Positions 20,319-60,628 of a stretch of DNA of 64,000 nt are shown one piece after another. The first letter of the stretch is position 1; every line of letters begins with the position of its first letter. The position numbers and the translations under genes were made by a program. The DNA comes from Escherichia phage slur16. Under the pieces are notes generated by a model. The model had not been told where the DNA came from. It searched no databases and saw only the letters and a program-made list of their open reading frames with translations. The stretch lies in sequence record NC_028248.1. One strand, given 5' to 3'.

Positions 20319-20637
20319 CGTTTATGTTCGGGCAAGGTCGCTAGTCTTGCCCCGCCATTTTCAGGCAGCTGCATGTCTCCATGCAGACCAGACTATATCT
20401 TATAAGCGACAACAACCGCTTATCCTCCCGTTTCGAATCGCTTGATTCTACGTCTTTCGACTAGTCGTTGAACGTTCATCCTCTCGGATGCTTCGCTGCG
20501 GATTATCTAAATTAACACACTGTTACCATACCTTCGATCTCTCTTCGAAGCCTCTATCATGTTACCATGACAGGTTGGTGGTATTAATAGTAAAGATTTC
20601 CCCGCAATTAGGGAGGTTTTACGAGAGCTACAAATTA
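20319..20637 (-). mobile_element. group I self-splicing intron (ORF-less) in terL
   Basis: Minus-sense conserved elements in order: P AAUUGCGGGGAA (20609-20598), Q AAUCCGCAGC (20504-20495), R GUUCAACGACUAGUC (20473-20459), S AAGAUAUAGUCUGG (20401-20388); no ORF; splits Walker ATPase from nuclease domain. Confidence 0.8.
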
Positions 20638-21063
20638 ACCCTCATCGAAGCAAACCATGGTGTACTCAAGCCCTTGATGGTTAAGCTTATCTTGTACATA
20701 CTCCATGTGGCAGTATTTTACAACAGCTCCCTTTTTGCTTCTATCCCACTTGCCAGTGTTCGGATCAAACCGTGGAAAAATGAACTTATGATCCTTCTCT
20801 CTGAACTTTGGCTTAATGTTTTCAGGCAGATCACTATAAATAGCTACCGCTTTAGGCCATAGTCCACCCTCACCTTCCAACTGCGGGGTTGTTCTTCGGA
20901 ACATAACCACAGAGCTGTGGGGGTCATCAATAATTTTAAGTGGCATCAATTGCAAGAGGAACGACTTGCCAGACCCTGCGGCACCGCCGATTACCAAAAT
21001 ATCTGCATCGTTTTCGAGGATCATCTTCTGCTTTTCAGAACACGGTCCGTAAATCTTAGACAT
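20638..21063 (-). CDS. terL: terminase large subunit, exon 1 (ATPase domain)
   Basis: Walker A GGAAGSGKS and Walker B-like VCFDE; ORF-track stop at 20635 lies in intron sequence. Confidence 0.8.
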
Positions 21064-25365: not shown

Positions 25366-25448
25366 GTGTCCGTATCACGGACAGTTAGTGTCCGTATTAC
25401 GGACAGATGTGTCCGCGTGACGGACAGTAGTGTCCGTATCACGGACAG
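25366..25448. repeat. four tandem palindromic sites (core TGTCCGT-NNN-ACGGACA), spacing 21-22 bp
   Basis: Copies at 25366-25384, 25388-25406, 25409-25427, 25430-25448; copies 1 and 4 identical; flanked by AT-rich DNA (25321-25365). Confidence 0.9.
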
Positions 25449-25522
25449 TTACTAACCTCTGTTCCAGAGTGAACATAAAACATACGAATCCTTATAGTAC
25501 AGATATTTAAGTTTTTACTGGT

Positions 25523-32279: not shown

Positions 32280-32342
32280 TCATTGACATAACCACACGGA
32301 CGTGGTATTGTTACCTCATAAAATGTTATGGAGTGTTTAACC

Positions 32343-33023: not shown

Positions 33024-33306
33024 GAGATCTGTAAAAGAGAAATTCGATAAGACAGCTTTTGTATTCGATACACCTCTGGACGATATCATCAGGGGTATGC
33101 AAGCCTTGTATCGGAAGGCTGAATCTGAGCAGTTGTCTGAATCAGAACTTTACTGGCTTGGTTGGTGGGAGTTAAACCTGCCTAAAGCTGAAAGCTCTTG
33201 TCTGAGAACTGTTAAAACGTGCGCCCAAGAAAACGCTGCACTTGGAATCTACCACAAAAGGAAAAGATCAACAAAAAGCTCTCCAAGAAAGACTAAAAAG
33301 TCTTGA
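33013..33306 (+). CDS. hypothetical protein with basic C-terminal tail
   Basis: 97 aa; C-terminus HKRKRSTKSSPRKTKKS. Confidence 0.4.
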   Translation: MMAKRSVKEKFDKTAFVFDTPLDDIIRGMQALYRKAESEQLSESELYWLGWWELNLPKAESSCLRTVKTCAQENAALGIYHKRKRSTKSSPRKTKKS

Positions 33307-33332
33307 CAAAAGTGTTATTAATCTGATATTAT
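33303..33332 (+). promoter_or_regulatory. sigma70-like promoter
   Basis: TTGACA (33303-33308), 18 nt spacer, TATTAT (33327-33332); AGGAG RBS and ATG 33366 downstream. Confidence 0.55.
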
Positions 33333-33365
33333 CGGTCAGATATCTATAAACTAGGAGAACTAGGT

Positions 33366-34806: not shown

Positions 34807-35138
34807 TGACTAAAAATTCTGTAGATAACGCAATTATGGAAGCTGTTTTTGAGGATGATCACACAACAGGGACACTTAAAACAAAAAATACATTCGTTGT
34901 TGCCACAGGTATGTGGCGGTTGTATGAAGATGACACCATTTCATACATCCTGTACACGGATGATTACGCAGATGACCGTGTATGGTCTGCTGTTTTAAAA
35001 GAGGATTGTGAGCTGATTGAGGGCGAGCGGTTATGCATGTTCACCAGTGTGGAAACAGATGTTAAGCTTTGCTCTCTCGTATTGTTCAAAGATAAGGCTT
35101 ATGCTCCTGATGAAGGAGAGGAGGATGAGGAAGCATGA
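34803..35138 (+). CDS. hypothetical acidic protein
   Basis: 111 aa; ATGA coupling both sides; C-terminus EGEEDEEA. Confidence 0.4.
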   Translation: MMTKNSVDNAIMEAVFEDDHTTGTLKTKNTFVVATGMWRLYEDDTISYILYTDDYADDRVWSAVLKEDCELIEGERLCMFTSVETDVKLCSLVLFKDKAYAPDEGEEDEEA

Positions 35139-35764
35139 GAGAGCGTCTATTATCCATAGACCAGTCGTTGACACACACAGCTTGCGTTGTATGGGACGAT
35201 GGAAAGCCTGTTCATAAGGTTGTGTTACGAACTCAAAGCTCATCTGCAAAAGAGAAGAAACCAGGGACGGTTTCTTTTGCAACAGCTGCTGAGCGTATTG
35301 ACTGGATCTGCAAACAGGTCAGATATTATATCCACACGCACGGCGTTGACACTGTAGTTATGGAAGGGCTTTCCTTTGGATCACGCGGGGATGCCACACG
35401 TGAACTGGCTGGGTTGTTTTACGGTCTTGAAGTTATGCTTTGGGATGCCTTAGCTGATTGTGAAAATGACGGCCTGTTTAAGGTCCACACAGTGACACCA
35501 ACAACTGCCAAAAAGTTTGCTCGTGGTCATCTTCCTGAGGAACTTGCTTTCGAGGAGAAGAAAAAGCTTGACAAAAAGACAGGTAAAGAGCATACTGTGA
35601 AGAAACCTGTTACGATGGATAAAAAGTTGATGGTTAAGGCCTGCGAAGTATCTGAACCTGGGTTCCTAGATGGGATCAATTTGGTACAAGGTAAGGCCGA
35701 TCTCGCAGATGCTTATTGGATAGGCAGGGCGCATCTGGAGGGATTATCGCAAAGCGTAAAATAA
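35135..35764 (+). CDS. RuvC-like Holliday junction resolvase
   Basis: LSIDQSLTHTACVV (Asp motif), VVMEGLSFG (Glu), DLADAYWIGRAHL (C-terminal Asp pair). Confidence 0.5.
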   Translation: MRERLLSIDQSLTHTACVVWDDGKPVHKVVLRTQSSSAKEKKPGTVSFATAAERIDWICKQVRYYIHTHGVDTVVMEGLSFGSRGDATRELAGLFYGLEVMLWDALADCENDGLFKVHTVTPTTAKKFARGHLPEELAFEEKKKLDKKTGKEHTVKKPVTMDKKLMVKACEVSEPGFLDGINLVQGKADLADAYWIGRAHLEGLSQSVK

Positions 35765-41396: not shown

Positions 41397-41425
41397 TTGA
41401 CTAATAGTATTAGATAATCTATAAT
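41397..41425 (+). promoter_or_regulatory. sigma70-like promoter (near consensus)
   Basis: TTGACT (41397-41402), 17 nt spacer, TATAAT (41420-41425). Confidence 0.6.
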
Positions 41426-41465
41426 AATGGCTCACTTTGTTGGTGAGCCAGAAATGGAGACAGAT

Positions 41466-42168: not shown

Positions 42169-44480
42169 TCACCAAGGTAATTAAAAGCAACGGATGTGAA
42201 GTGGCATTCGATCCAGAACGTTTAAATAAGGCAGCTATTTTCGGTGACGATGGTAACGGCAATTGGTCACATATTGCACTGGATGCCTACAAGCGGTTGT
42301 ATGATGGATGTACAACCAAAGAAGTTAACCAAGCTATTATAGACTCTTGTGTTAGCCGTAAAGACGAAGCACATTCCCGTATGGCTGGTCGTGTTCTCAT
42401 TGGTCAGATCTATAAAGAGGCTTTTGGAGGGTTTACAAAGATCCCTTCCTTACCATTATTTTACAATGACATGGTTGAGAAAGGTTATTGGGAGGATATG
42501 GGTTATAGCTTTACCGAGCTAAACACTTTAGACGCTGTTATTGACCACAGTAAAGATCTCGGTTATGGCTATGCAGTCCTTAAACAGTTTCGCGACAAAT
42601 ACGGGATCAAGGATACTCTTAAAGACACCTTGTTTGAATCTCCCCAGATGATGTTTATGGGGATAGCAATGGCTGTCATGAAGAATATGCCGAAAGAACG
42701 TCGTATCAACGATGTTGTAAAATTATACACTTATCTGTCCGACTTAAAGATCAATGCCCCAACACCGTACTTAAACGGGCTGCGCACAGGTAAGACAGGG
42801 TATGCATCTTGTTGTGTAATAAAAGCTGACGATACAGCAAAATCTATTGGTGTGGCACGTGAAGTTGCGTACACAATGACGGTTAACCAGGCAGGTATCG
42901 GCTACTATTTATCCTCAAGATCTGCAGGCGATGGTGTTCGTGGTAACACTATTAAACATATGGGTAAGATTCCATATTATCGAGGTATTGATGCTGGGGT
43001 TAAGGAGAACAGACAACAATCACGTGGCGGTTCTGCAACAGTATCATTCCTTGCACTGGATCCGCAGATTGATGAGCTAATCCGTTTGAGAAACCCTATG
43101 ACTGTTGCTTCAAAAAGAATCAACACCATGGACTACTCTATAGGTATTAACAGGTCGTTTATCAACCGTGTGGCTAAGAATTTAGATTGGATGCTTGTTT
43201 CTTATAAGCACGCGCCTCAACTGCATGAGGGTATCTTCACCATGTCTATGGAGGAGTTTGATGCAGAGGTTGATCGTATCGCTAAAGATGACAGTATTCC
43301 TAAAACATGGATCCGAGCTAGAGATCTTGCTGTTGAACTGCTCACGCAGCGTACTGAGGTTGGAAGGCTGTTCGTATACTGGACAGACGAGATGAATAGA
43401 CATACACCTTTTAAAGATGTGATCTATTCAAGTAACCTGTGTGCAGAAATAGCCCTCCCGACAAAAGGCTATTCAGATATGCGTAATATCTTCAAGCACG
43501 ATGTTGATGATGGCGAAGTTGCATTGTGCTTCCTGTCATCCCTTGTAGCTGGAAGGGTTACCCCAGAGGAGTATGAGGATGTTGCATATTACACTGTGCT
43601 TATGATTGACAATGTTATGGAAATCATGACATATCCGTATGAAAATATGGAGAGCACTGTTAAAAAACGCAGATCCATCGGAGTTGGCCTTACCAATGTT
43701 GCACATTTTATTGCCAGCCACAAGGTTACTTACGGATCTCCTGAAAGTAAACAGCTTGTTCACGATCTTGCAGAACTTCACAGCTACAGTTTGCATAAGG
43801 CAAGTTTACGATTGGCAAAAGAGCGTGGTGTCTGTGAGTGGATGCATAAAACAAAATACCCGGAGGGTTGGTTACCAATCGACACCTATAACAAAGAGGT
43901 CGATAGCGTGGTGAAAGATCCTTCTCTTAAACAGGATTGGGAAGGGTTACGTAAAGAAATCATTGAAAATGGTGGGCTACGTAATAGCGTTCTTGAAGCA
44001 TATATGCCTAATGAAAGCTCTTCGCTGGCAACAAACACCACTAACGGGGTTTATCCTGTCCGTGAGCACATTATCTTTAAAAAGTCGCCACAAGGGCAGG
44101 TGCTGTTTATCGTTCCTGACTATGATGAGTTGAAAGAGTATTACACTTCGGCTTGGGACGTTGATACTAACGACATGATCGATATGTATGCTGTGATTCA
44201 AAAATTCACAGGTCAGGCAATCAGCGCGGATTTATACATAGACTACACCAAGTTGAAAGATGGTAAAATTTCAATGAAGGAGCAGCTAGGGTACCTTATC
44301 CGTGCCACTAAATTCGGGATGAAGACATGGTATTATTTAAACTCTAGGGTTGGTGCTGGTGACTCCTTGGCAGAGGAACTTCATGCCAAGAAACAGGCTG
44401 AAGATGAAACCAGAAAGAACTACCCTTTGATTGCAGATAGTTCAGTTGAAGATCCGTATTGCGAAAGCTGTGCACTATAA
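42165..44480 (+). CDS. nrdA: ribonucleotide reductase class Ia large subunit
   Basis: 771 aa; catalytic NLCAEIALPT; C-terminal CESCAL; followed by nrdB. Confidence 0.9.
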   Translation: MITKVIKSNGCEVAFDPERLNKAAIFGDDGNGNWSHIALDAYKRLYDGCTTKEVNQAIIDSCVSRKDEAHSRMAGRVLIGQIYKEAFGGFTKIPSLPLFYNDMVEKGYWEDMGYSFTELNTLDAVIDHSKDLGYGYAVLKQFRDKYGIKDTLKDTLFESPQMMFMGIAMAVMKNMPKERRINDVVKLYTYLSDLKINAPTPYLNGLRTGKTGYASCCVIKADDTAKSIGVAREVAYTMTVNQAGIGYYLSSRSAGDGVRGNTIKHMGKIPYYRGIDAGVKENRQQSRGGSATVSFLALDPQIDELIRLRNPMTVASKRINTMDYSIGINRSFINRVAKNLDWMLVSYKHAPQLHEGIFTMSMEEFDAEVDRIAKDDSIPKTWIRARDLAVELLTQRTEVGRLFVYWTDEMNRHTPFKDVIYSSNLCAEIALPTKGYSDMRNIFKHDVDDGEVALCFLSSLVAGRVTPEEYEDVAYYTVLMIDNVMEIMTYPYENMESTVKKRRSIGVGLTNVAHFIASHKVTYGSPESKQLVHDLAELHSYSLHKASLRLAKERGVCEWMHKTKYPEGWLPIDTYNKEVDSVVKDPSLKQDWEGLRKEIIENGGLRNSVLEAYMPNESSSLATNTTNGVYPVREHIIFKKSPQGQVLFIVPDYDELKEYYTSAWDVDTNDMIDMYAVIQKFTGQAISADLYIDYTKLKDGKISMKEQLGYLIRATKFGMKTWYYLNSRVGAGDSLAEELHAKKQAEDETRKNYPLIADSSVEDPYCESCAL

Positions 44481-45610: not shown

Positions 45611-45889
45611 ATGAGCTGTGAAAAATCTTTTTTCTTTATTATTTACGGTAAAGATAACTGCCCACATTGTGTAAGAGCAAAAGAATTTGCAGTCAGTAAA
45701 GGTCTGCCTTTTGTATATAAGACACTTGGCGAGGGTTACACAAAAGAAGAGCTTATTGAGAAGTGCAGTCCAATCGTACCCAGAACGTTGCCGCAGATCT
45801 TCTTAGAAAGCAATCTTGAAAGTGTCCATATAGGCGGTGCCGACGATTTCATCTCTTTTGTTAAGAATGGTTTTGGAGAGAAAAAGTGA
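45611..45889 (+). CDS. glutaredoxin / NrdH-like redoxin
   Basis: 92 aa with CPHC active site (YGKDNCPHCVRAKEF); between nrdB and nrdD. Confidence 0.7.
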   Translation: MSCEKSFFFIIYGKDNCPHCVRAKEFAVSKGLPFVYKTLGEGYTKEELIEKCSPIVPRTLPQIFLESNLESVHIGGADDFISFVKNGFGEKK

Positions 45890-46746
45890 AAGTTGTAAAA
45901 CGGGACGGTAGAGAAGAGGTCTATAACGGAATTAAGGTGATCAAGGCGGCAGAGTCCGCCTTACTTGAGTCTGGACATACTGAAGAAGAAGCTTACCGGA
46001 TCGCCTGTGCGGTTAATGAAGTTGTTGCTAACAATCTACCAACCGATCAGTGCACGATCTCTGTAAAAAATATCCATATCCTTGTTGAAGATGCTCTTAT
46101 GGATATGGGTTTAAAATGTGCAGCCAGAGAATACATCCAGTATAGGCAGACAAGAGATAATAACAGAGAGGCAGGTGGAAAACTGCTTGCAGATATTAGT
46201 GGCTTCTTGGATCGCACTTGTGATGAATTTACAAAAGAAAACGCAAATAAGCCTACCAATCATGTACACACTCATCGTGACCTGCTTGCAGGCATCCTTA
46301 GCAAACACCTTGCATCAACACAGATCCTGCCAGACCGTGTCTCAGAAGAGCACAATAAAGGCTTCATCCATGTGCATGATCTTGACTACTTGATCAGTCC
46401 GTTAACAAACTGTTGTTTGGTAAATTATCCAGATATGTTGGAAAACGGATTCAACATTGGCAACGCCCATGTCAGTAAGCCGAAGTCAATAGGGGTTGCA
46501 ACAACAATCCTTAGCCAAATCTCTAGTGCGGTAGCTAGTGCTCAATATGGTGGTCAGACTATGAGCCATATTGATCATTATCTGGCACAGTATGCTGAAG
46601 CAACCTATGAGAAGAACCTTAAATTTTGCCAGGAACATTGGTTGCCGGATGCTGAAACTGTTGCAATGCAAATGACAGATAAAGACGTATTTGACAGCAT
46701 GCAGACTTTGCTCTATCAAATCAATACGTTAACTTCTGTCAACGGT
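45886..46746 (+). CDS. nrdD: anaerobic ribonucleotide reductase, exon 1
   Basis: N-terminal ATP-cone-like start (MKVVKRDGREEVYNGIKV); frame ends in intron; 5' splice site approximate. Confidence 0.8.
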
Positions 46747-46749
46747 TAA

Positions 46750-47560
46750 CAAACTGGCCGTTGTAAAACTCTCCTAACCTCATAAGAGGGGTCGGTAAAT
46801 CCGGCTAACGGGGAACGCTAAGGCGAAAGCTATGCCAATCCCGTGACTAGTTCTTACAGGAGTTGGAACGGTTGTAACGACTAACGAAAGGCAGAGATGC
46901 TTGACAAACATTTCTGAACCAAGTAGTGTAGGGGTTAGTTGAAATACTAACTTCGAAATGGAGAGGCTCTATGAAAAAGATCATTCTTAATGGTGAAGAA
47001 TCAAACTATGTGATTGATGAAGTTGGAAACGTATACGGAAAACGTGGAATGCTGCACCCAATATTGTGGGGAGGTTATGGAAAAGGTAATAAGCATGTTA
47101 AACGCCGTTATATGTACTCTTTCAACCACAAAGGTAAAAAGATTCGAATCCAAACCTCAAGGGTTGTTGCCTTGTATTGTTTGCCAGATGTCCCAGAAGA
47201 CCCTGAAAACTGGGAAGTGAATCATAAAGATGGCAATACATTGAATGATCATCCGTCTAACCTAGAGTGGGTTTTGCCGGAAGATAATAAGAGACATGCT
47301 TTCCGAACAGGACTTTGTCCAGGTAAGTGCTATAGGAAAGTGCAGGCATACAAAGGGAAAATCTTGGTGGGTGAATATCCTTCACTCTACGCCTGTGCAA
47401 AAGCCTTAAATTTGAACGTAGGTAACGTTCACAGGGCTATCGAAGGAAATGCCGAAGGTAAGCATCTCACAATAAAGGGTTATTATCTTATTGAAGTAGA
47501 GTAAGAGATAGTCTGGCCCTGTGGAAACACAGGGAGGAGACAGCAGACTCCATTCATCAC
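46750..47560 (+). mobile_element. group I intron in nrdD carrying HNH homing endonuclease
   Basis: Q-like AATCCCGTGAC (46848-46858), R-like GTTGTAACGACTAACG (46871-46886), S-like AAGAGATAGTCTGG (47503-47516) flanking the HNH ORF; splits one nrdD reading frame. Confidence 0.8.
46971..47504 (+). CDS. HNH homing endonuclease (intron-encoded)
   Basis: 177 aa; HNH core EVNHKDGNTLNDHPSNLEWV; lies inside nrdD intron. Confidence 0.8.
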   Translation: MKKIILNGEESNYVIDEVGNVYGKRGMLHPILWGGYGKGNKHVKRRYMYSFNHKGKKIRIQTSRVVALYCLPDVPEDPENWEVNHKDGNTLNDHPSNLEWVLPEDNKRHAFRTGLCPGKCYRKVQAYKGKILVGEYPSLYACAKALNLNVGNVHRAIEGNAEGKHLTIKGYYLIEVE

Positions 47561-47561
47561 A

Positions 47562-48806
47562 TTGAGTTTAGGACTGGATACCTCGGTCTTTGGTAGAATG
47601 ATTACCAAAAACTACCTGAAAGTCCACAAAATGGGTCTTGGTGAAGAACGTATCACACCTGTGTTCCCTAAAGTGCTGTTCTTCCTGGAAGAGGGTGTCA
47701 ACATGAACCCTGGGGATCCTAACTATGATTTGAAACGATTAGCTCTGGAATGCTGTGCAGAACGTATCTATCCTGACTTCGTATCTGTACCACTAAATAG
47801 AAAAGTGACAGGCTCGACAGATGGCAAAGTAACTAGCATGGGTTGCAGGAGTTTTCTTAGCAAATACAATGACTTGGAAACAGGCGAGGAGAAATACCTT
47901 GGCAGATTTAACTTAGGCGTTGTTAGCCTTAACCTGCCAATGATTGCGGCAAAAGCCAAGACGGAAGGTGTTGATTTCTTTGCAGTTCTTGACGAATACT
48001 TGGATCTTGCATACGAGGCTCACCTTGTAAGGGTTAATCGTCTAAAAGGAACAAAGGCAGGGCAGAACCCCATCATGTGGTGTGAAGGCGCTCTTGCTCG
48101 CCTGGATCCTGAAGAGAGTATTGATAAACTCTTCTATGACGGGTACGCTTCCATCAGTATTGGGTATATCGGTGTGTATGAAACCTGTCAGATTTTGGGC
48201 AGAGAGGGTGACAAGGCTTTAGCTCTTGGAATCCTTCAGCACATGAGAGATGCTTGTGAGCGATACAAGAAGGAAAGTAGACTAGCATTTAGCTTGTACG
48301 GCACTCCTTCTGAGAGTCTATGCTATAAAGCTGCAACCTGTCTGGATCGTGAATATCCGGAAGTGTTGAAGCACGAGCATGAATATCTCACCAACAGTTT
48401 CCATCAGCCAGTATGGATAAATAGCTCTCCTTTTGATAAGTGGGAGTATGAGGAAGGTTTTGCTATAATCTCCTCTGGTGGCAACATCGGATACGTAGAA
48501 ACACCTAACCTGAAAAACAACCTGGATGCTTTAGAGGCTCTTGTTGACTTCGGGTATAAACACATTATGTATTTTGGTATTAACCAACCTGTGGATAAAT
48601 GTCTCAAGTGTGGTTTCTCTGGTGAGTTCAGTGCAACAGCTAAAGGCTTTGTATGCCCAGAGTGTGGAAACCATGAAGAGGGAACGATCAGTGTAATTCG
48701 ACGTGTGTCTGGATACCTTTCCAGTCCTAACTCCCGTCCTTACAATAAAGGTAAGCAAGCGGAAGTTATCGAGCGAGTTAAGCACTACGGAAGTTGTGGT
48801 TGCTGA
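47562..48806 (+). CDS. nrdD: anaerobic ribonucleotide reductase, exon 2
   Basis: GRFNLGVVSLNLP; C-terminal zinc ribbon CLKCGF...CPECG and glycyl-radical motif RRVSGYL; exon probably begins 10-40 nt upstream of the ORF-track TTG. Confidence 0.8.
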   Translation: MSLGLDTSVFGRMITKNYLKVHKMGLGEERITPVFPKVLFFLEEGVNMNPGDPNYDLKRLALECCAERIYPDFVSVPLNRKVTGSTDGKVTSMGCRSFLSKYNDLETGEEKYLGRFNLGVVSLNLPMIAAKAKTEGVDFFAVLDEYLDLAYEAHLVRVNRLKGTKAGQNPIMWCEGALARLDPEESIDKLFYDGYASISIGYIGVYETCQILGREGDKALALGILQHMRDACERYKKESRLAFSLYGTPSESLCYKAATCLDREYPEVLKHEHEYLTNSFHQPVWINSSPFDKWEYEEGFAIISSGGNIGYVETPNLKNNLDALEALVDFGYKHIMYFGINQPVDKCLKCGFSGEFSATAKGFVCPECGNHEEGTISVIRRVSGYLSSPNSRPYNKGKQAEVIERVKHYGSCGC

Positions 48807-48869
48807 TTCTTGACAAAAGCCACAAGGATGTGGCATATTATTGACACACAGTGAGCTAGGAGGTGCAGT

Positions 48870-48986
48870 ATGTCATCAGGTATTTATAAAATTTGCAAGT
48901 GCGGCTGTAGTTGTAATCTTCGTTGGTGCAAGGCACTAGACGATTTTATTTGGCATTGCCCTAAATGTGATGCGGAGTATCTATGA
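48870..48986 (+). CDS. small Cys-rich zinc-ribbon protein (38 aa)
   Basis: MSSGIYKICKCGCSCNLRWCKALDDFIWHCPKCDAEYL; AGGAGG RBS 7 nt upstream; stop overlaps nrdG start; below ORF-track size cutoff. Confidence 0.4.
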   Translation: MSSGIYKICKCGCSCNLRWCKALDDFIWHCPKCDAEYL

Positions 48987-50806: not shown

Positions 50807-50850
50807 TACAGAAGGGTGGTTATTCCACCCTTAAATATCTAAAACAGTTG

Positions 50851-50879
50851 TTGACAAATAGGTAAGCTTTAGATATTAT
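50851..50879 (+). promoter_or_regulatory. sigma70-like promoter
   Basis: TTGACA (50851-50856), 17 nt spacer, TATTAT (50874-50879); same TATTATCGG downstream motif as promoter at 33327. Confidence 0.55.
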
Positions 50880-53866: not shown

Positions 53867-53903
53867 TAATTTATCTTACCAGGGACGGTAGGTAGGAGGT
53901 AGC

Positions 53904-55797: not shown

Positions 55798-55859
55798 TAG
55801 TTGAGATATGGCACAAAGGATGTGCCATAGTGAAATAAACTAAGAAAGAGGTAGAGAGA

Positions 55860-58737: not shown

Positions 58738-59058
58738 ATGCAAATTGAAATCACTGGCAACAATGTAGAAATCACAGAAGGTATGGTATCTTTTATTTCC
58801 CGCAAAATGTCCAAGCTGGAGCGTTTACATCCCTCTGTTAACTATGCACGTGTGAGTGTAAAAGTTGAAAATGATCACCAGGAAGTTATGGCGTTCATTT
58901 TTGACAATTCTGGAAAAGAAGTTATTGCCAAGGCTAAAGGCAGTGATGCTTACGAGGCAACTGACCGTATGGTAGATGTTGCAGCACGTCAGCTGGCTAA
59001 ATGCGGTGGAAAGAAAGGTAAGGGGAAAGGCAAAGTAAAGATTGACTTTGGAGAATGA
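58738..59058 (+). CDS. hpf: ribosome hibernation promoting factor homolog (RaiA/HPF family) with Lys/Gly-rich C-terminal tail
   Basis: MQIEITGNNVEITEGM...KLERL...VSVKVE...GSDAYEATDRMVDVAARQLAK aligns with E. coli HPF MQLNITGNNVEITEAL...KLEQY...VVLKVE...GQDMYAAIDGLIDKLARQLTK. Confidence 0.75.
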   Translation: MQIEITGNNVEITEGMVSFISRKMSKLERLHPSVNYARVSVKVENDHQEVMAFIFDNSGKEVIAKAKGSDAYEATDRMVDVAARQLAKCGGKKGKGKGKVKIDFGE

Positions 59059-59465: not shown

Positions 59466-59556
59466 TCCTGCTTGGATTAGCATACTTCCTCGCTAAGGAA
59501 GATTTGTAATTATTTGTGGGAAAGGAGTCCCAATCTCTTACCAGAGGTGATACTAT

Positions 59557-60552: not shown

Positions 60553-60628
60553 TTTTCTTGCACACAGGTGTTGACAACACCAACCCTGTGTGAAATAATA
60601 CCTTCATCTTAACAAGACGGGAGACTGA

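Follow-up and report, generated by a model that had tools for sequence, protein, structure and literature searches.

Escherichia phage slur16 (sequence record NC_028248.1) carries three inverted repeats in short gaps of its early gene run, and these repeats were analysed in a stretch of 64,000 nucleotides of the phage genome (hereafter the window). The three inverted repeats (sites 1, 2 and 3) are probably composite promoter/stem-loop spacers of the promoter-early stem-loop (PeSL) kind, punctuating the one-directional early cluster of an rV5-like phage. A PeSL has been defined by an upstream stop codon, a sigma70-like promoter, a stem-loop and a Shine–Dalgarno (SD) sequence with a start codon, and the stem-loop may lie between -35 and -10, over either box, or just upstream or downstream of them (PMC2839356). 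PeSL cassettes serve as points of recombination, and their stem-loops attenuate read-through (Arbiol et al. 2010, PMC2839356). Judged from their sequences, the elements described here look like RNA stem-loops within early promoters rather than repressor sites on DNA.

Each spacer would run from the stop codon through a promoter, whose extended -10 is complementary to the bases just upstream, to the ribosome-binding site and start codon. As DNA, the spacer would serve as an early promoter for the downstream gene, a role that appears secure at sites 1 and 3 but is questionable at site 2. In RNA that reads through from upstream promoters, the same bases would fold into a hairpin just past the upstream coding region, and this hairpin may act on the read-through RNA as an attenuator, a 3′-end protector, an insulator or a protein-binding site. 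Such short conserved cassettes may also favour the insertion or exchange of genes beside them. If this reading is true, the early genes of unrelated therapeutic E. coli phages follow a cassette design previously regarded as peculiar to T4-type phages, with a bearing on the insulation of early transcription units and on where new genes insert, both in nature and in phage engineering.

Layout of the three spacers

The window matches Escherichia phage slur12, an rV5-like Vequintavirus, with 100% identity (LN881735.1, reverse complement); the whole genome comprises 136,898 bp. All genes from approximately 27 kb to the end of the window lie on the + strand and include nucleotide-metabolism genes and small genes of unknown function; the three inverted repeats occupy short gaps in this run. 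The site 1 gap extends from the nrdD stop at 48806 to the ATG (48870) of a 38-aa Cys-rich open reading frame (ORF) upstream of nrdG. Sites 2 and 3 each separate two hypothetical genes (stop 55797 and ATG 55860 at site 2; stop 60552 and start 60632/3 at site 3). The inverted repeats begin 9–13 nt past the upstream stop codon, and the SD sequence and ATG follow 30–45 nt further downstream. The features of the three sites are as follows, with folding energies (dG) in kcal/mol.

Site 1
48810–48815, + strand: -35 hexamer TTGACA, found by promoter scan
48819–48834, + strand: stem-loop GCCACA-AGGA-TGTGGC, dG -7.8, containing the 14-mer CCACAAGGATGTGG
48831–48839, + strand: extended -10 TGg-CATATT, overlapping the 3′ arm of the stem; the TG precedes the hexamer found by promoter scan
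48858–48872, + strand: SD sequence AGGAGG and ATG (48870) of the 38-aa Cys-rich ORF
Site 2
55807–55829, + strand: stem-loop TATGGCACA-AAGGA-TGTGCCATA, perfect 9-bp stem, dG -11.7
55823–55831, + strand: possible extended -10 TGc-CATAGT; the -35-like TTGAGA at 55801–55806 is not conserved
Site 3
60561–60592, + strand: stem-loop CACACAGG...CCTGTGTG, 8 outer and 4 inner pairs, dG -16.3, enclosing the -35
60571–60576, + strand: -35 hexamer TTGACA, found by promoter scan
60591–60599, + strand: extended -10 TGa-AATAAT of the rV5 sigma70 promoter P150

The palindrome GCCACA-AGGA-TGTGGC of site 1 was present as the preliminary description of this DNA had reported, at 48819–48834, between TTGACA and the -10 region and ahead of the Cys-rich ORF and nrdG. 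The promoter is of the sigma70 type, with TTGACA, an 18-nt spacer and TGg-CATATT, and the sequence 5′ of its -35 (GGTTGCTGATTC) is the end of nrdD. The hairpin appeared in the minimum-energy structure, and the folding energy of the whole spacer was unexceptional relative to shuffled sequences (z = -0.6). The same bases can alternatively fold as CCAC[AAGGAU]GUGG, in which an ANGGAX hexaloop stands on the stem, and the distance from the loop GGA to the GGA of the SD sequence is 33 nt. An exact copy of the GCCACA/TGTGGC stem with the loop GGTA also occurs at 34902–34917, within the coding region of slur12_00067, and is probably due to chance.

The related palindrome TGGCACA-AAGGA-TGTGCCA of site 2, reported at 55809–55827, was likewise present, and it proved to be longer than claimed, with a 9-bp stem at 55807–55829. 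Its assignment to a promoter held less well: a possible extended -10 is there, and the TTGAGA that lies 19 nt from this -10 was missed by the promoter scan and is not conserved in related phages, which leaves the promoter status of site 2 doubtful. In phage 12A_SA_NWU, T-7 of the -10 is lost and the hairpin is unchanged. The core GGCACAAAGGATGTGCCAT stays unchanged throughout, including a contig with diverging flanks and a spacer just 77% identical overall, and the site 2 spacer folds far better than shuffled sequence (z = -4.9). The SD sequence of site 2 has no GGA. Deep homologues of this context were not found, as the downstream gene is restricted to Vequintavirus and IMG/VR contains few relatives.

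The third promoter (60571) had been described as bracketed by an 8-bp inverted repeat at 60561–60592; this repeat was present, and the promoter is the published rV5 promoter P150. It comprises TTGACA, a 17-nt spacer and TGa-AATAAT, and the 3′ arm of the stem ends in the TGTG of the extended -10. Upstream of it stand TTTTCTTG and then a G/C-containing arm. The spacer folds far better than shuffled sequence (z = -3.1), and the variants at this site, a C-to-T change in the 5′ arm (one IMG/VR contig) and an A-to-G change in the inner stem (two phages), are both wobbles. Site 3 shares with sites 1 and 2 only TGTG/CACA dinucleotide repeats. At all three sites TGTGn stands immediately before the -10 hexamer in the same register, and therefore the 3′ arm of each inverted repeat is the extended -10. 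Sites 1 and 3 match a sigma70-like promoter in sequence, and site 2 has just the extended -10.

The frequency of the motif depended on its definition. The loose pattern CACA-N4-5-TGTG was not enriched (5 observed against 2.9 expected), and the core shared by sites 1 and 2, CACA-N0-1-AGGATGTG, was above chance, with 2 matches against 0.02 expected and none of the 100 shuffles reaching 2. These two were the only copies of the core in the 136,898-bp genome, apart from one degenerate relative at the homologue of rV5 promoter P090. There, CCACACGGACGTGG stands between TTGACA-taa and TATTGT in the same register as at site 1, with 12 of 14 bases identical, and the SD GGA is 32 nt downstream of the loop GGA. 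Further stem-loops were associated with promoters of the cluster as listed below.

32283–32311, + strand: rV5 P090 homologue TTGACA-taa-CCAC[ACGGAC]GTGG-TATTGT, 5-bp stem, dG -5.4
33321–33341, + strand: stem-loop ATCTGAT...GTCAGAT, overlapping the -10 of a P093-type promoter (TTGACA at 33303)
41428–41450, + strand: 8-bp stem-loop just 3′ of the -10 of a P107-type promoter (TTGACT at 41397)
50812–50832, + strand: 8-bp stem-loop 5′ of the -35 of a P121-type promoter (TTGACA at 50851)

All five positional subclasses of PeSL were found among the 32 spacers of the cluster, together with two promoters that have no stem-loop. The stem-loop lies between the boxes at site 1 and the P090 homologue, over the -10 at site 2 and the P093-type promoter, over the -35 at site 3, upstream at the P121-type promoter and downstream at the P107-type promoter.

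Conservation of the element within and beyond Vequintavirus

Among six Vequintavirus sequences, TTGACAAAAGCCACAAGGATGTGGCATATT of site 1 was invariant, and so was the -35 TTGACA. The most divergent isolate, EPFV3-03/2025, has GTCACA in place of GCCACA, which is a U·G wobble as RNA and a mismatch as DNA. In JEP1 and Mangalyan, homology ends directly after the site 1 hairpin and another gene comes next; the -10 is replaced, and TTGACA and the hairpin are intact. Directly 3′ of site 1 the gene content differs among these relatives: rV5 has ORFs 114–116, JEP1 a 312-aa gene and Mangalyan yet another gene.

Copies of the 14-mer were found in phages of other families. A short-query BLAST search returned a borderline match just 3′ of gene 43 in the Serratia T4-like phage CBH8, reading GTTTACA-ata-CCACAAGGATGTGG-TATATT. 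A pattern scan of IMG/VR viral contigs with the 14-mer CCACAAGGATGTGG followed by YATANT (approximately 37 bits), a pattern that itself required the -10, returned 18 stretches; several contigs had two different loci, and each site lay between a stop codon and an SD sequence with ATG. In 484 phage records the 35-nt T4-type version was at least 99% identical, most often with two loci in each genome. Among these records are T2, T4, T6 and phages that infect Shigella, Yersinia, Salmonella and Klebsiella, and the element is concentrated in phages of Enterobacterales. In T4, one locus precedes rIIA.1 (...TAG-TTTACT-tta-CCACAAGGATGTGG-TATAAT...) and the other lies between nrdC.4 and nrdC.5; both carry a predicted early promoter annotation in some records. 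In the same genomes, the spacers of other early promoters are unrelated, and the 14-mer element is therefore a subclass and not a general consensus. Salmonella phage LPSEYT (MH181876.1, 15054–15084), a 53-kb Rosemountvirus, has TATACT-tta-CCACAAGGAAGTGG-TATAAT between its recombinase and helicase genes; the cassette is therefore also found outside the large myoviruses. A literature search for the 14-mer CCACAAGGATGTGG returned unrelated primer sequences only. On this distribution, the 14-base cassette would either have been transferred between phage families or been retained in all of them.

Selection on pairing and alternative explanations

Several points weigh against reading the sites as PeSL-like spacers. 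Stems of known PeSLs are typically G/C-rich (GGGG...CCCC) and have been shown to terminate, whereas the stems here, at -5 to -16 kcal/mol, are weaker and have no T-runs; the AT-rich UP-like stretch that precedes the -35 of PeSLs is absent at sites 1 and 3. No second cassette was found at the far junction of the gene inserted in JEP1, so this insertion is not a clean PeSL-to-PeSL exchange, and that explanation was rejected. A purely structural hairpin leaves the base-for-base conservation of the loop GGA and the 14-mer across unrelated phage families unexplained. The 24 variants that were aligned, other genera included, came from searches that fixed the inner five pairs of most non-Vequintavirus variants. 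A control with the -35, the AGGA loop and the -10 fixed and the arms free returned only CCACA/TGTGG pairs, the approximately 100 other matches being at chance level, and the idea that co-varying stems form a family about an AGGA loop was thus rejected. In an unbiased sample of 135 TTGACA-N12-TGTGGTATAAT promoters, 5–7 had stems of at least 4 bp complementary to the extended -10, against 2.9 expected, and the spacer hairpin was rejected as a general phage promoter design. Complementarity so near to chance means that what is peculiar is this conserved element.

Because the inner pairs were fixed by the searches, pairing was tested fairly between the -12 base and the base that immediately precedes CCACA, a pair that no search constrained. 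Of the 24 variants, 12 had A-U here, 8 had G-C, 4 had G·U and none was unpaired. At the neighbouring pair, 18 had C-G, 5 had G-C (all from site 2) and one had U·G. Covariation scored 0.227, against 0.102 in shuffles, none of 500 shuffles reached this score, and slid registers lost pairing; these figures are inflated by the relatedness and ascertainment of the variants. Three of the four natural stem substitutions were G·U wobbles that keep RNA pairing and break the DNA palindrome. In the loop, the GGA, the preceding A and the flanking CAC/GUG were invariant and the two positions beside GGA varied (AAGGAU, AUGGAU, ACGGAC, AGGGAU and AAGGAA were seen). The direction of these comparisons is clear: selection keeps the arms paired, with wobbles tolerated on the sense strand.

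The preliminary description had regarded the palindromes as operators gating subsets of early transcripts, and this view was not supported, given the mere two core copies in the genome, the unequal half-site spacing, the asymmetric loop and the wobble variants. Double-stranded DNA operators, at which a dimeric phage or host regulator would occlude or remodel RNA polymerase, are unlikely. The dyad symmetry of site 1 has its centre in the interval from -35 to -10, a position at which a bound protein would obstruct polymerase, the sequence is strongly conserved across phage families beyond its structure, and the mechanism that shuts off T4 early promoters has been stated as unknown (PMC2988021). 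Every retrieved copy also lies in a promoter in a fixed register, which the pattern scan imposed through its -10 and the BLAST-derived variants did not. However, the half-sites are spaced by 4, 5 and 16 nt and not by a fixed distance, and the conserved centre (A)AGGA is asymmetric and kept in one orientation. G·T variants occupy two stem positions in 5 of the 24 sequences and also occur at site 3, none being unpaired as RNA, and the change from G-C to A-T at the -12 pair tracks the -10 hexamer, as expected of base pairing rather than protein contacts. Only 2–3 sites occur per genome, and the T4-like, rV5-like and Rosemount-like phages have no obvious common regulator. A textbook operator-like array in the same window is different, with four perfect 17-bp palindromes at a fixed period of 21–22 bp. 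A genome-wide operator motif was rejected with the core occurring just twice in 137 kb, and the E. coli consensus sites considered (CRP, DnaA box, MalT box, marbox and MerR-type long spacers) do not fit. A further, very improbable view denies the palindromes any separate function: the 3′ arm would be just the extended -10, the 5′ arm a chance match, and the identity across phages the trace of a strong promoter passed among co-infecting phages. When the arms were held constant and the loop was left open, CCACA-loop-TGTGG-TATAAT sites with assorted loops were found in many unrelated viral contigs, which speaks for such a view, as do the near-chance complementarity in the unbiased promoter sample and the unexceptional stability of the site 1 spacer (z = -0.6). 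Against it, the 5′ arm and loop are invariant amid diverging flanks, most clearly at site 2, whose hairpin is fixed while its -35 drifts along with the -10 hexamer's 3′ half. Moreover, two stem pairs covary with 0 of 24 variants unpaired, and the core pattern was matched twice where 0.02 matches were expected.

The RNA reading can be narrowed further, with the hairpins as binding sites of CsrA, an RNA-binding regulator of the host, on read-through early transcripts, a proposal that we regard as doubtful. CsrA would bridge the loop GGA and the downstream SD GGA and repress translation of the next gene on the read-through mRNA, and transcripts from the embedded promoter, which do not contain the hairpin, would escape repression; alternatively, the hairpins would titrate CsrA or shield RNA from decay. 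The CsrA consensus obtained by systematic evolution of ligands by exponential enrichment (SELEX) is RUACARGGAUGU, in which ACA and GGA are 100% conserved and GGA lies in a hairpin loop (PMC4347634), and the highest-affinity form for CsrA-type proteins is an ANGGAX hexaloop directly on a stem (PMC4005645). Site 1 reads ACA-A-GGA-UGU, matching the SELEX consensus at 10 of 12 positions with ACARGGAUGU exact, and both differences between it and the P090 site (CCAC[ACGGAC]GUGG) fall on the N and X positions. In all 24 variants the GGA, the A that precedes N and the stem of CAC/GUG were unchanged, N was any of the four bases and X was U, C or A. The second GGA in the SD sequence lies 33 nt downstream at site 1 and 32 nt at the P090 site. 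A GGA spacing of 32–33 nt would lie within the bridging distance of CsrA. The only Rfam match at site 1 with E < 10 was of the hairpin to a stem-loop of RsmV, an RsmA-titrating small RNA (sRNA), and it was very weak (10.6 bits, E = 0.53). The element is also concentrated in phages of Enterobacterales. No phage-encoded CsrA was found (best tblastn E-value 1.5), and a host factor would therefore be used. Knock-down of csrA changes fitness under attack by several phages (PMC7553319).

Other observations count against CsrA. The hairpin is within the promoter spacer, so the promoter's own transcript is without it; every retrieved copy is in a fixed register with the -10 (as the pattern scan itself required), which an RNA-only site would not need; and the GTG of the 3′ arm is equally accounted for by the extended -10. 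At site 2 the loop is 5 nt (or 7 nt) long and an SD GGA is missing; GGAUGU and one A of ACA are kept in register. Neither site 2 nor the P090 site had a Csr/Rsm match in Rfam, and no known RNA family in Rfam reached its gathering score at the three sites. GGA-loop hairpins were weakly enriched in the 32 intergenic spacers (stems of at least 6 bp, 3 against 0.68, P = 0.03; at least 5 bp, P = 0.08), and this marginal enrichment did not establish them as a class. The role of CsrA in phage life cycles has been described as untested (PMC11879866). CsrA/RsmE targets and CsrB/RsmZ-type sRNA stem-loops resemble site 1 and the P090 site in having GGA in the loop of a short stem with N and X variable, but differ in that the sites here lie in a promoter spacer and not in the 5′ untranslated region of the promoter's own transcript. 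We accordingly hold it as a tentative, rather improbable idea that CCAC-ANGGAN-GUGG has been kept in T4-like, rV5-like and Rosemount-like promoters because host CsrA binds the read-through RNA. If this were true, the promoter from which an mRNA came would govern translation of the next gene, or the sites would let the phage capture CsrA, and a global host post-transcriptional regulator would be linked directly to early gene expression of lytic phages, T4 included. The idea, if true, would speak to whether CsrA has a part in the lytic cycle, and it might also bear on T4 early gene switch-off, called unknown in the T4 literature.

Three other hairpins with an ANGGAN loop were seen on the sense strand. 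Two are intergenic and lie shortly 5′ of the next start codon (CTTACC-AGGGAC-GGTAGG at 53875–53892 and TGGGA-AAGGAG-TCCCA at 59517–59532), and one, with a 10-bp stem (AGAAGAAACC-AGGGAC-GGTTTCTTTT, 35253–35278), is within a coding region.

Other features of the window and comparison with known systems

The four tandem 17-bp perfect palindromes TGTCCGT-ATC-ACGGACA (25366–25451, period 21–22 bp) lie inside a gene-free gap of approximately 660 bp (record 43352–44015), the 'non-coding' box of the rV5 map; the array has the look of iterons or operators and may be an origin or a site where a regulator binds. On the - strand, a group I catalytic intron (84 bits to Rfam RF00028, E = 5.5e-20) was found at 20369–20647, and because it lies in the gap between two 'Terminase-like' coding sequence fragments, the large terminase gene is intron-split. 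Annotation splits nrdD (45886–48806) into two pieces that flank a 177-aa ORF; phage EmilHeitz has these pieces joined, with the intervening ORF named homing endonuclease. The non-coding stretches flanking the ORF that interrupts nrdD are strongly structured (z = -2.8 and -2.1), and no Rfam intron model reached threshold there. A ribosome hibernation promoting factor (Hpf/RaiA-like) is encoded at 58738–59058 within the same early cluster; one publication, by its title, concerns coordination by CsrA of the expression of ribosome hibernation and anti-sigma factor proteins (PMC10746276). Approximately 19 GenBank records titled 'Campylobacter phage' (host C. jejuni) are 97–99.9% identical to the present E. 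coli rV5-like phage, and their host labels look unreliable.

Intrinsic terminators of rV5-like phages (rV5 Table S4) resemble the three sites in that a hairpin stands just past a stop codon. The true terminators of this phage, unlike the sites, have G/C-rich stems of 6–10 bp (-11 to -25 kcal/mol) and T-runs. The tails after the stems were ATATTATTGA, GTGAAATAAA and AAATAATACC, with no T-run at sites 2 and 3; site 1 was picked up by a simple terminator scan, with only AUAUUAUU in place of a T-run. Sites 1 and 2 are absent from both the promoters and the terminators published for rV5. Intrinsic terminators were rejected on these absences, on the lack of T-runs and on stems weaker than those of the phage's own terminators.

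The closest likeness is with PeSLs. All three sites have the intergenic order from stop to start codon, and their stem-loops take positions relative to the boxes that are among the five known for PeSLs. The elements recur along small early genes and, at site 1, adjoin differences in gene content, which may parallel PeSLs, and as in PeSLs G-T pairs are tolerated in the stems. PeSLs have been described only for T4-like myoviruses, whereas the sites here are in a Vequintavirus, and neither a report of PeSL-type cassettes in Vequintavirinae nor a transcript map of this phage group was found in our literature search. Base-for-base conservation of the stem-loop, loop included, across phage families was seen here and not in the PeSL papers. 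The promoter consensus of T4/PST PeSLs is TTTACW-N17-TAYWAT, with variable stems (Comeau et al. 2014, PMC4122927), and the element at site 1 is the one present in two T4 early promoters that agree with this consensus. These T4 promoters (rIIA.1 and nrdC.5) differ from site 1 in the -35 and -10 (GTTTAC, 17-nt spacer and TATAAT in T4; TTGACA, 18-nt spacer and CATATT at site 1) and in the sixth stem pair (A-T in T4, G-C at site 1). They share with it the identical 14-mer CCACAAGGATGTGG in the same register to the -10, directly after the upstream stop codon and followed by a GGA-containing SD sequence.

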